Assembly: GCA_015063535.1 (NCBI GenBank)
Contig: SVTY01000004.1
Coordinates: forward strand, 58,343-122,342
Length of the DNA: 64,000 nt
Direction of reading: 5' to 3'
Source: Oscillospiraceae bacterium
GTDB lineage: Bacteria; Bacillota; Clostridia; Oscillospirales; CAG-272
Shown: positions 21,601-24,600 of the stretch, piece by piece
Layout of the letters: each line of letters begins with the position of its first letter
How positions within the stretch are numbered: position 1 is the stretch's first letter
Made by a program: the position numbers and the translations under genes
Notes under the pieces: generated by a model
Seen by the model: the letters and a program-made list of their open reading frames with translations, nothing else
What the model was told of the DNA's origin: nothing
Database searches by the model: none

Positions 21601-24600
21601 ATCAATGATTTTACATCGGAGGATATTCAAAAGACAGAATATTGGGCGAGAAAGTTCTATGCGGAGCTTGGAACAAAATCGCCATTTTTCCGTGCGCAGT
21701 TTGGTGATTGGAGAGCACATGATGCGACACCCATTCAATTGATACCGATCACCACTATCAACGTAGAAAATGCTCTTTCGAATATGCCAACAGGAATCTT
21801 TTCAAATAATGATGCTGGCTGGAATATTTCTGTTGGTAGTCTTGGGAAAAATGATACCGTCAGCCATTCAGGCAGAGAAAAGATTTCTGTAAAAATGCTT
21901 TCGGAAATCAAAAAAATTATTGAAAGTGCTGTCCTTCTCGATACCGAAGTATCTGTAAAGGATAGTTCTAAAAAACACAATGAAACTGCTTTTATGCATA
22001 AGCTTTATGCTCCTGTTGTCTACAACGGACAGCACTACATTGCAAAAGTAACAGTTGAAGAGTATGGAAGCAATGAATCAAGCAAGCGTTTTTACAACCT
22101 TCGAGGCATAAAAATAGACCTTGCCGGCGGTACCCCGAATGCAAAAGCATCCTACGGCACAGTGCCAAACACAAGGTCTATAAATAGTATAGCAGACCTG
22201 TTTGCCTTTGTCAAGGAGTATGATAAAAAATTTTCTCCCAAGCCTGTCAATAAAATGCTTTTGAATGTAGATGGAACACCCAAGGTGATGTATCATCAGA
22301 CGGAAGAGAGATTCGATGGTTATAATCCTGATATCAAATTTTCCCGAAAAGAAACTGCGGAAACCGATTTCTTGGCAGAGGCGAAACGTTCCAACGAGAA
22401 AGTCACGATGACCAAAGGACAGTTGGAAAAGCAACGTGCCAATCTGTATGGCGAAAAAGTATTTAGCAAAAAGGATGTTGCCGAAGCGGTGAACGACATT
22501 GAAATTTTGGAGAAAATCGGAAAGAACATTGCCGATCGGAAAAGACCTGAGCTTGAGGCACAGCTGGCGCAAGCGAAAACACAAAAAGAAAAAAGGGCAA
22601 TTGAAACAAGAATAAAATACTTAGAGCAAAATGCGATTGCTGAAATGCGGAACAGATTGACTGACCATTTGTGGACGGGCTTCAACCAAAGACGAGATTC
22701 GCAAGCATATGAAAACTACGCCGAGATCATGTATAAAAAAATACATGCCGAATTTATGAGCGAAACAAACCATGATATGGATACCGATGAAGTTTGGGAG
22801 ATGGACAGGCAGATCGGACAGGCATTGCGGACGATCATCAAGTCCGGCAAGCTTTCCAAATATGAAACCAAAATGCTGGAAACAACGGCGGCATATTGGC
22901 GAGATCAATACAGGCAAGGTCAGGAACGCACCAAGCTTCTCGGTACGCTGATGAATCAAACGCAGAAGCTCAAGGAGCTGAAATCGGGAGCCTTTCTGAA
23001 TGCCTCCGTGTACAAAAGCGACGTGTTCAAGTCCACCGTCGAACAGCTATCACGGATCAATTATCGGGGCAATCTGAATGTCATGGGTACTCGGAAGCTC
23101 ATTGCCGATCTGCTTGACTGGTATCAAAGCGATAATCCAATGCTTGGATATGTGGACGAAGCGAACACCGGCTATTTCCGACAGGAAGTGGCGGATGCCA
23201 TGCGGATGATCGCCGAGGGCGATAAGGGCTTGAGCAATCAGGAGTTGCAGATGCTCGGTGAGGTGATCCTGCCGCATTGCATATTCATTGTGGAAAATTT
23301 CAACAAGGTCTACCGAGAGGGCAAATACATCGAAGCCATGCCCTTGGCAAAAATGTACGTCAAGAAGCTGCAAGCCATGAAGCATCGAAAGGACGGCTTG
23401 ACCAAAAAGTATCTGCGTACCTTTGGCGATCCCGCCTCTCTGATGCGTTATGCCGACGGCTATGACCCGAACGGATTCTTTACGCAAACCTTTGAGGAGC
23501 TCCGAGAGGGAGCGATCGGCGCCTCCGTGACAGAGAGGGAGCTGTTGCGGGAATTTGAAGCCTTCCTCCATGGAAAAGGGAAGGGGGACTATCGCAAGCA
23601 TCTGGAAAAGGATACCGTCACCTATCTCGGCAAAGAGATGTCTGTCCGCCATGCCATCTGCCTGTATATGACACACAAGCGAAAGCAGGCGGTAAAGGGA
23701 TTGTGCCTGTCAGGGATCGAATTGGAGATTGACGGCAATCGTGTGCGCCTGCCGGCATTGATCGCAGAGGATGGAAAAAAGCATTCTGCGCAAGAAATGC
23801 AGGCAACGGTGGATGCCTCCGCTGCGAAACTGCTTGAACAGTTCTCGGAGCAGGACAAGAAGCTGATCGAGATCATGGAAAAAAGCTTTGCTCGGAGCTC
23901 GACTTTAAAAGAAAATACCGATAGGAAGCGTTTTGGATTTTCCAACGTGTTAAAGAGTGGCTATTATTTCCCAATACGTCGGGCAAACGTAGCGCATAAT
24001 GTGGACGAGAGCTTTTTTGCAGAGGTCGACCGTGTGACGCATCTCGGATTTAATAAAGATACCGTGCAGGGAGCGGCGGGAGCTTTGCTGATCGAACCGA
24101 TCGACACAGTATTTACCCGCCACATGAGAGGAATTGCTATGTATGCGAACTTGGCGATTCCTACCGACAATTTCAACCGCTTGCTGAACTTGAACACGGA
24201 AAGCAATCACAATCTGCCGATCAGTGTTCTTTCCGAGATTCAAAGCACAGCCGTAAGCACAGAAATGTTCAAATACCTCAAGGAGCTCAAAGAGAGCATT
24301 GAAGGGGTCAACCGCTCCGAACAGAGTGCCAAGTGGTTCAACCGTGCTGTCGGTCATATTCGCAGCGGCTTTGCCAAGTTCCAGCTCGGCGCCAATGCGA
24401 AGGTGCTCATCACCCAAACATCTTCTTTATTTGCCGCAACAAGTGTGCTGGACTATGATTGTGTCGTCAAGGGACTTGCGATCCAAAACGCCTATGCCGA
24501 GGTCGATACATACTGTCCGCTTGCCATGGTGAGAAATTCGGATAATACCGTTGCGCTGGCGCAGGGTGTTTTGGATAAGACGGGGAAGGTCGGAGATATC

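Follow-up and report, generated by a model that had tools for sequence, protein, structure and literature searches.

Background

Lambda OOP and P22 sar are short phage cis-antisense RNAs of about 70-80 nucleotides (nt), each made from a strong constitutive promoter and ended by its own hairpin and U-tract. A unit of similar build was analysed in a 64,000-nt stretch of DNA (the window) from an Oscillospiraceae bacterium (CAG-272; assembly GCA_015063535.1, contig SVTY01000004.1, positions 58,343-122,342 of the forward strand). It consists of a promoter, a hairpin and a U-rich run on the minus strand, together called the cassette, and lies within the linker that follows the LPD3 domain of a giant polyvalent protein. 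The original prediction for this site had been an antisense promoter with a cloverleaf-like RNA. The cassette resembles OOP and sar in having its promoter in or next to a phage gene and a predicted self-terminated RNA that is fully complementary to the phage mRNA. It differs from them in that promoter, hairpin and U-rich run all lie within the sequence coding for an inter-domain linker, where constraint on synonymous sites keeps them. In addition, many phages have it behind domains of three families, and some genes contain several copies.

The type I antitoxin RNAs of Firmicute prophages are also comparable, as a constitutive antisense RNA there counters the expression of a harmful product of the same locus. 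In the present case the target would be a 7.5-kb effector gene and not the mRNA of a small hydrophobic peptide, and the overlap lies in the middle of the open reading frame (ORF), away from both its ribosome-binding site and its 3' end. Membership of type I was rejected, as the overlapped gene encodes a polyvalent protein of 2489 amino acids (aa) and not a small membrane-active toxin peptide; despite this, the working principle may be alike. Type III ToxI shares with the cassette a structured RNA that is physically linked to an endoribonuclease-like protein. A ToxIN-like type III system is disfavoured, as the site carries a single hairpin without a tandem-repeat array, the RNA gene is antisense to the protein-coding sequence and follows it, and PBECR3 genes standing alone mostly lack the cassette. 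The Rickettsia RPE and Correia elements are examples of hairpin DNA that is tolerated in reading frames or has promoter activity. Unlike these, the cassette is unrepeated in its genome and its position relative to the protein domain is fixed over deep divergence.

The host gene is polyvalent with LPD3 and its relatives carry MuF_C, PBECR3 and ART-PolyVal, in line with the reports on polyvalent proteins (Iyer et al. 2017, PMC5512222) and MuF toxins (Jamet et al. 2017, PMC5576092). The element is mentioned in neither paper: the words 'antisense', 'promoter' and 'linker' have 0 occurrences in PMC5512222, and 'linker', 'hairpin', 'promoter', 'recombination' and 'nucleotide' have 0 occurrences in PMC5576092. 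Neither paper describes a mechanism of self-protection or silencing for polyvalent or MuF toxins. Full-text literature searches covering the main articles found no prior description of the element. By its kind it is a cis-antisense small RNA (sRNA) unit; what is new is its full nesting in a coding linker by synonymous-site constraint and the systematic coupling of the cassette to three effector-domain families.

Antisense promoter and U-tract

The host gene of the cassette was an ORF of 2489 aa at 18664..26133 (plus strand), in which LPD3 was the sole Pfam match (PF18798, residues 1036-1144, nt 21769..22095, plus strand, E 6.7e-15). The score of 55.7 bits against a curated cut-off of 27 places the domain in this family, and the match agrees with the region of about 21790-22115 that had been expected for LPD3. 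As the domain ends at nt 22095, the unit starts where the domain ends, in accordance with the earlier claim.

The promoter TTGACA-17-TGcTATACT was confirmed on the minus strand at 22214..22186, with 11 of 12 consensus positions matched and a TG ahead of the -10. Its -35 hexamer TTGACA (22209..22214, minus strand) lies over the sense peptide ..AFVK.. and takes up the third base of the Phe codon, the Val codon GTC and the first two bases of the Lys codon AAG. The extended -10 TGcTATACT (22186..22194, minus strand) lies over the sense codons Ser AGT, Ile ATA and Ala GCA. The promoter geometry predicts a transcription start at 22178..22179 (minus strand), 7-8 nt past the -10. The unit closes with a U-rich tail UUUUAUGCC (22105..22113, minus strand), the probable intrinsic termination site, which lies over the sense residues Gly-Ile-Lys at the end of the last LPD3 strand. 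Directly after the inverted repeat of the hairpin the minus strand reads UUUUAU (22113..22108), and the sequence of a perfect repeat followed by a U-run was found as predicted.

The conservation of these elements was analysed among relatives of the host protein. A protein search with residues 1020-1320 gave 155 relatives at E <= 0.001, of which the best 120 were viewed. Among the matches listed, the peptide S/T-I/V-x-D-L-x-x-x-V-K was near-universal and stood about 23 variable residues past the last LPD3 strand. DNA was fetched for 46 homologous loci; the 43 having the motif gave, together with the window, 44 rows with 27 distinct 30-nt versions of the promoter region and protein identities of 34-70%. 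A perfect antisense TTGACA was present in 43 of the 44 rows, and a TAnnnT -10 was also present in 43. The promoter codons were nearly fixed (AGT ATA ... nnT GTC AAG), and the spacer codons varied synonymously, for example GAT TTG TTT, GAC CTG TTT and CAG CTT TTC. The weaker -10 elements TACACT, TACAGT and TGTACT all had the upstream TG and the rows lacking TG all carried TATACT, TACTGT in locus L015 being the exception to both. The locus has a sigma-70-type -35/-10 pair with a spacing within 16-18 bp, and this pair is conserved among its relatives.

Third-base conservation was examined in 142 codon columns aligned from 33 non-redundant sequences. The eight columns with the most conserved third base coincided exactly with the codons of the U-tract (three), the -10 (two) and the -35 (three), with values of 94-100% against 48% for the median column. 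At the -35, the Val codon was GTC in 32 of 33 sequences, compared to a GTC background of 14% among Val codons, and the third base just before it was T in 33/33. At the -10, Ser was encoded by AGT in 26/26 cases (background 16%) and Ile by ATA in 22/22 (background 35%). The U-tract residues I-K-I were encoded by ATA AAA ATA, with Ile ATA in 32/33 and 27/27 and Lys AAA in 21/21, and the third base was A in 94-97% of the sequences across the three codons. Over the three promoter and U-tract positions taken together, ATA accounted for 81 of 82 Ile codons against the 35% background. Invariant residues elsewhere showed normal synonymous variation, such as Asp with 18 GAC and 14 GAT. This freezing of the third base is what a promoter and a terminator predict, and not what recent shared ancestry of the whole segment predicts. 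On the comparative evidence, the promoter hexamers, the U-tract and the base pairing described below are shown to be under nucleotide-level selection across deeply diverged relatives, which bears out the earlier suggestion that an antisense unit explains the odd linker peptide. The A-rich run of the sense strand together with the hairpin was also considered as a programmed frameshift signal and rejected, as ATA AAA ATA does not conform to the heptamer X XXY YYZ and the reading frame is not interrupted.

Hairpin and folded strand

Between the predicted start and the U-tract lies a rod-like hairpin of 64-68 nt (22114..22181, minus strand) built of an outer stem of 10-11 bp and three inner helices and capped by a UUUU loop. 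On the sense strand this stretch codes for the linker I-DLAGGTPNAKASYGTVPNTRSI, starting at the last Ile of the IKI motif. Its ends form a perfect 10-nt inverted repeat, ATAGACCTTG and CAAGGTCTAT (22114..22181), which occurred a single time in the window and in 0 of 100 shuffles. The predicted 75-nt transcript (22179..22105, minus strand) had a folding energy of -33.5 kcal/mol and a z-score of -4.20, with 0 of 200 shuffles as stable; z-scores of the hairpin ranged from -4.2 to -4.8. The sense strand of the same 75 nt reached -21.2 kcal/mol (z -2.20, 6 of 200 shuffles as good). The fold was one long irregular hairpin of four stacked helices.

This fold replaces the cloverleaf that had been proposed. 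ARAGORN reported 0 tRNA genes in 21000..23000, and the side arms of the cloverleaf were paired in just 57.5% and 63.3% of the cells of the relatives, with no helix-wide compensation. An Rfam cmscan of 21800..22500 gave 7 matches, all far under their gathering scores (the best 22.8 against 60), and none of them covered the hairpin.

When 31 non-redundant loci were folded singly, a common architecture was found in 29. It consisted of an outer stem of 7-12 bp closing just ahead of the U-run, three inner helices set apart by bulges of 3 nt on the 5' side, and a small loop rich in U. The mean z-score of the 29 loci was -2.7 and the mean minimum free energy -24.9 for the antisense strand against -20.4 for the sense strand. 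The primary sequences of the hairpin subfamilies are unrelated to each other. RNAalifold predicted 0 pairs on a plain MAFFT alignment of the 29 promoter-to-terminator stretches, because an alignment based on sequence sets the diverged hairpins out of register; it was replaced by a 10-sequence subset (A4) and by covariance-model alignments (A5, A6). In the 10-sequence MAFFT alignment, 92.2% of the cells were paired compared to 75.0% after shuffling and 33-46% with the partners slid; both-sided changes were seen in 13 of 26 pairs, and the nested helices of the rod were paired in 85-98% of the cells. In the 21-sequence covariance-model alignment, which is fitted to the structure and leans towards it, 89.0% of the cells were paired against 65.1% shuffled, with both-sided changes in 19 of the 26 pairs. 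The covariance models R1 and R2 reach the closer hairpin subfamilies only, and their matches were weak or absent at loci L004, L007, L009, L012, L024, L026-L028 and L046. A stable hairpin with the U-tract directly after it, conserved with covariation, was found in this manner.

The kind of mismatch indicated which strand is folded. G-U cells occurred at the level of chance (45 observed, 46.6 shuffled), A-C cells were halved (6 against 13.0) and other mismatches were nearly four-fold fewer (14 against 51.9). As G-U is tolerated and A-C depleted, the antisense strand appears to be the folded one. The opposite reading is an mRNA hairpin on the sense strand which slows ribosomes behind the domain to let it fold co-translationally, the promoter-like hexamers being incidental. 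The position of the element exactly at a domain boundary would suit it, and the sense strand does fold somewhat, with z -2.20 here and -5.68 in a second cassette of the gene. The sense fold is weaker, however, and 17% of the stem cells are G-U on the antisense strand, which makes them A-C mismatches on the sense strand. Third-base freezing affects the promoter hexamers and the U-tract, not the stem alone, and nothing alike was found behind ART-PolyVal domains with further protein following (0/12). This reading was considered extremely improbable.

Linkage to effector domains

The occurrence of the cassette was analysed in Pfam-defined domain samples chosen independently of the motif. The module was defined as an antisense TTGAC[A/T]-like -35 with a TAnnnT-like -10, a closing hairpin of <= -15 kcal/mol and a U-rich run, falling within 300 nt after the domain. 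The detectors were our own scripts with arbitrary thresholds, which were offset by genome-wide and sense-strand controls, and the taxonomic coverage was one phylum and one Escherichia coli phage.

For LPD3, 22 hits were obtained in 20 of 399 genomes of the same class; a promoter-like site stood behind 21 and the full module behind 19 of them. Two further hits from other classes of the phylum both had the full module (2/2). An antisense promoter and stem behind other LPD3 domains had been a consequence of the original prediction, and it held. MuF_C gave 22 hits in 20 of 390 genomes, with a promoter-like site in 22/22 and the full module in 21/22. The -35 was perfect in 20/22 LPD3 and 19/22 MuF_C hits. 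PBECR3 was found in 37 of 389 genomes, from which 30 loci were fetched and 28 were usable; the full module was present in 8 of 9 frames of at least 300 aa and in 2 of 19 shorter (solo) frames, one of the two being a weak site. The distance to the U-run differed by family (68-76 nt for MuF_C, 75-92 nt for PBECR3). ART-PolyVal (19 of 389 genomes, 18 of 22 hits analysed, 16 usable) had the module in 0/16 hits, and in 0/12 where the frame ran on for at least 100 aa. In 7 of 18 ART hits the module lay on the N-terminal side, behind the preceding domain.

The genomic background for these counts is 48 modules per 3.35 million strand-bases of the genome containing the window, that is 0.0056 per 390-nt search interval. 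A strict detector found 4 sites in that whole 1.67-Mb genome, 2 of which were within the polyvalent gene. Across 8 stretches of 9-22 kb, 9 module hits lay antisense inside giant ORFs, 0 sense inside them and 3 outside. One ORF of 3268 aa carried modules right behind MuF_C (982-1086), LPD3 (1519-1642) and PBECR3 (2196-2297) and no module behind LPD23 or DUF6782. In the MuF_C-like segment of an LPD5-domain protein of Escherichia coli phage 933W (L154, NC_000924.1 53108..55831), no antisense promoter-like site was present in 2724 nt; the segment retains ..RGLQLP.., the peptide that opens clostridial MuF_C linkers. The lack of a promoter there indicates that the cassette may be confined to Firmicute phages. 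The survey shows the predicted cassette to be tied to the C-terminal flank of LPD3, MuF_C and PBECR3 when more protein follows.

The nature of these domains bears on what the RNA could do. In the portion of PMC5512222 consulted, MuF-C is stated to be a PBECR domain, that is a predicted ribonuclease (RNase) of the BECR fold, and the BECR domains named are PBECR1-6 and MuF-C. LPD3 is placed in the same portion solely among domains of unknown function, contrary to the earlier statement that it had been described as a BECR-fold domain. PBECR3 is BECR-type by its Pfam name. An AF2 model of LPD3 (pLDDT 94.6) showed helices followed by four long strands, and Foldseek against the PDB gave nothing at E <= 0.001. 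The VIA matches of the model were weak, with Z of 5.6-3.3, under the caution level of 8 of the tool. About 11 of the best 20 VIA rows were RNase toxins of RelE, colicin D, CdiA-CT or BrnT type, the RNase-toxin matches including CdiA-CT, BrnT, colicin D, RelE, MqsR and YafQ; type IV secretion, nucleoporin and NTF2-like chains were mixed in among the same 20. The hhalign comparison of LPD3 with PBECR3 and MuF_C gave only a helix match of 13-17 columns at a probability of 1-2%. A BECR-like fold for LPD3, as judged from the model, is suggestive and not established.

The association with these families raises the main alternative, that the hairpin RNA is a partner of the protein, which binds the BECR-type domain (LPD3, MuF_C or PBECR3) or mimics its substrate and neutralises it. 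The RNA would take effect either in the cell that makes it or, against the injected effectors of related phages, in lysogens. As an antitoxin or immunity RNA of type III-like character, it would be inherited together with the domain by being encoded in the adjoining linker; the only reason for its antisense orientation would be that the sense strand of an ORF cannot accommodate a terminator. The three families followed by the cassette are BECR-type or resemble it (MuF-C according to the consulted portion of PMC5512222, PBECR3 by its Pfam name, LPD3 by the weak VIA matches), and both the absence behind ART-PolyVal (0/16 hits) and the pattern of the 3268-aa ORF, with cassettes behind MuF_C, LPD3 and PBECR3 and not behind LPD23 or DUF6782, fit this alternative. 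So do the hairpin length specific to the domain family, the shape that is kept while the sequence diversifies, and the near-consensus promoter, which would suit a stoichiometric inhibitor. Set against these are the cassette in just 2 of 19 solo PBECR3 genes, one with a weak site, the 933W segment without an antisense promoter-like site in its 2724 nt, the absence of a ToxI-like tandem-repeat RNA, and the BECR assignment of LPD3, which rests on Z <= 5.6 with hhalign probabilities of 1-2%. We regard this alternative as rather unlikely. The link to RNase-like domains that had been suggested stood in so far as the cassette follows MuF_C and PBECR3 and not ART-PolyVal, and did not extend to the solo PBECR3 genes or to 933W; an RNA ligand or type III-like antitoxin as a required partner of the domain is disfavoured by the same two observations. 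It is likewise doubtful that, in the polyvalent and MuF toxins of Firmicute phages, every BECR-type domain is accompanied by an RNA immunity gene of its own in the adjoining linker. If it did, this would be a new class of protein-embedded RNA antitoxin, and would explain how immunity stays linked to the domain despite rampant domain shuffling.

Further cassettes and copy number

A second cassette was located in the same gene at 20862..20984 (minus strand), with the promoter TTGACT-17-TGgTATACT (20984..20956), a hairpin of about 77 nt and a U-rich run. Its antisense fold had a minimum free energy of -36.3 and a z-score of -5.07 (0 of 200 shuffles as stable), and its sense strand a z-score of -5.68. 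The sense peptide of this cassette (..KIRDTADRINGLERPKPNEGYALTNGISDDSISDSSEKVNT..) resembles the LPD3-adjacent linker of locus L055. Pfam recognised no domain upstream of it, nor upstream of the second cassette of locus L074.

Several cassettes in one gene were also observed elsewhere. Two or three stand in tandem at L015 (1167..1360), L060 (about 1800..2250) and L134. At L015, two different linker types are fused in tandem, which suggests a junction made by recombination. At L017, the first hairpin is followed about 475 nt further downstream, in the same short contig, by a second one of another subtype (1579..1664, minus strand), the type present at L004. At L069 (G350:C4), the LPD3 match is broken by 4 TAA stops, yet it is still followed by an antisense TTGACT-17-TATAAT with a hairpin (-20.3) and a U-rich run; either the break in the gene is recent or the cassette is maintained whether or not the frame is intact.

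These arrangements, together with the strength of the promoter, were weighed for a device acting at the level of DNA and transcription. Here a strong convergent promoter with an immediate terminator would make the RNA a by-product; head-on polymerase roadblock or interference would stop weak read-through before the downstream effector part, and the terminator would spare the structural genes from antisense transcripts. The near-invariantly perfect -35 (43/44 rows, 20/22 LPD3 and 19/22 MuF_C hits) goes beyond the need of most working promoters, the unit ends within about 70 nt, and the cassette precedes the variable or effector part and is seldom seen at domains without further protein behind them. 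The tandem cassettes at L015, L060 and L134 are of the same tenor. The conserved four-helix architecture and the compensation in the inner helices are left unexplained by such a device, for which a simple terminator stem would do, and it was judged unlikely.

Copy number was relevant to a further alternative. Conserved pre-toxin junctions of polymorphic toxins, and in-frame palindromes of the Rickettsia RPE and Neisseria Correia type, are models for a recombination junction at which downstream effector cassettes are exchanged, or for the relic of a selfish palindromic element. The cassette does lie at the border of conserved and variable parts, and its hairpin region ends in inverted repeats and is divisible by 3 in length. 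Near-identical downstream peptides occur in relatives whose LPD3 sequences are unrelated, a sign of mosaicism, to which the tandem fusion of two linker types at L015 may be added. On the other side, the element was single in its own genome. The DNA search of the 1.67-Mb assembly (83.9% complete) gave one match, and the covariance-model search one strong match and one weak match (E 0.06); a miniature mobile palindromic element (MITE or RPE-like) was rejected, as similar dispersed copies were not found in this assembly. The copies inside one gene differ in sequence, the conserved parts are a sigma-70-type promoter with 17-bp spacing and a U-tract, in blocks of 6-9 nt that are too short for homologous exchange, and the tolerance of G-U points to a single-stranded RNA or at least to a strand-specific fold. 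A junction or relic was considered highly unlikely. In wider searches, tblastn with LPD3 and the linker gave 0 matches in 50,697 phage records and 72,556 plasmids, and a single-protein scan of viral contigs gave no match either.

Proposed mechanism

The feature is very probably a real transcription unit nested antisense in a coding sequence (rough probability 0.85). That its product is a cis-antisense RNA safeguarding the effector gene is the reading we prefer, at a rough probability of 0.45. As the RNA would be perfectly complementary to the sense mRNA at the junction, cis-antisense control is the simplest function. In this scheme, host RNA polymerase would use the near-consensus housekeeping-sigma promoter constitutively, the lysogen included, and start 7-8 nt past the -10. 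The product would be a self-terminating RNA of about 72-75 nt, nearly all of it one bulged hairpin, with its U-tract ending at the last LPD3 codons and perfectly complementary to the linker part of the polyvalent-protein mRNA. Its target in cis would be the giant effector gene, at the junction that precedes the downstream effector part, where pairing with the mRNA would lead to cleavage or a block of translation, and head-on interference from the promoter may add to the effect of the RNA. The leaky, potentially toxic downstream part would be kept off until strong late transcription overrides the control. The linker could hold such a unit because its peptide is free to vary, and the unit would be placed antisense because an intrinsic terminator within an ORF is tolerated on the antisense strand only.

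Several points weigh against this reading. The start and end of the RNA are read from sequence. The hairpin is unlike a textbook terminator, being long and bulged with its final stem pairs A-U rich, and it was not listed by a simple terminator scan, because the rule of the scan demands a loop of 3-8 and an uninterrupted stem. The relatives in the hairpin alignments are not mutually independent, and the larger alignment has the lean towards its structure noted above. Cis-antisense control alone does not account for the adjacency to three BECR-type families and never to ART-PolyVal. It also leaves unexplained why just about 70 nt of a 7.5-kb gene are covered by the RNA, and why these lie mid-gene and behind the RNase-like domain. 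The conserved bulges on the 5' side and the family-specific hairpin length are more constraint than bare complementarity needs.

Synonymous sites and a linker that is free to vary appear to encode a complete unit of promoter, hairpin and terminator, in relatives down to about 35% protein identity. Most searches for non-coding RNA are confined to intergenic regions and would miss a unit of this kind. For polyvalent and MuF polymorphic toxins, the unit would mean a further layer of biology based on RNA. RNA structure, and not protein function, would have shaped the linker peptide, which matters for the annotation of domain boundaries and for recoding or codon-optimising such genes.

Prophage setting and neighbouring features

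The window has a prophage layout, with a replication initiator (2328..3218), a large terminase (3885..5690), a P22-like portal (5898..7811), a major head protein (8770..9630) and virion and tail-fibre-like proteins (10727..15621). The genes to the right of the polyvalent gene are ordinary cellular ones, for a P-type ATPase and DUF1385. With phage structural genes upstream and cellular genes downstream, the polyvalent gene is the last large gene of the prophage and its product a phage-type polyvalent protein.

In relatives, LPD3 is followed by an ART-like domain, of which the window protein retains the first strand only (22240..22340, plus strand; ..LLNVDGTPKVMYHQT.. compared to ..LLNEDGTPKVFYHGT..). 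ART-PolyVal was not found by Pfam in the 2489-aa protein. The downstream ART domain seems, from this comparison, to have been lost and the antisense cassette left intact.

A perfect sense-strand promoter TTGACA-17-TATAAT was observed inside the polyvalent ORF at 20309..20337 (plus strand), over the peptide ALDNFAEVRYN. It was rejected as a part of the system, as the peptide motif occurred in just 2 of 121 fetched proteins, which indicates a lineage-specific or chance match.

A pair resembling a type I toxin-antitoxin system adjoins the polyvalent gene 200-400 nt to its right (window positions 26241..26571). A promoter TTGACA-17-TGtTATACT (26571..26543, minus strand) is followed by a leader of about 110 nt, a GGAGG ribosome-binding site, a hydrophobic ORF of 27 aa (26430..26350, minus strand) and a terminator (26340..26322, minus strand). 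The ORF has a weak Pfam match to Hol_Tox (E 8e-4, 19.6 bits, under the cut-off of 23.3). A convergent perfect promoter lies at 26241..26269 (plus strand), and its RNA would overlap the 3' end of the 27-aa ORF unit. The region looks like a type I toxin-antitoxin pair at the edge of the prophage, and its place beside the polyvalent gene makes it plausible that antisense control is used in this element.

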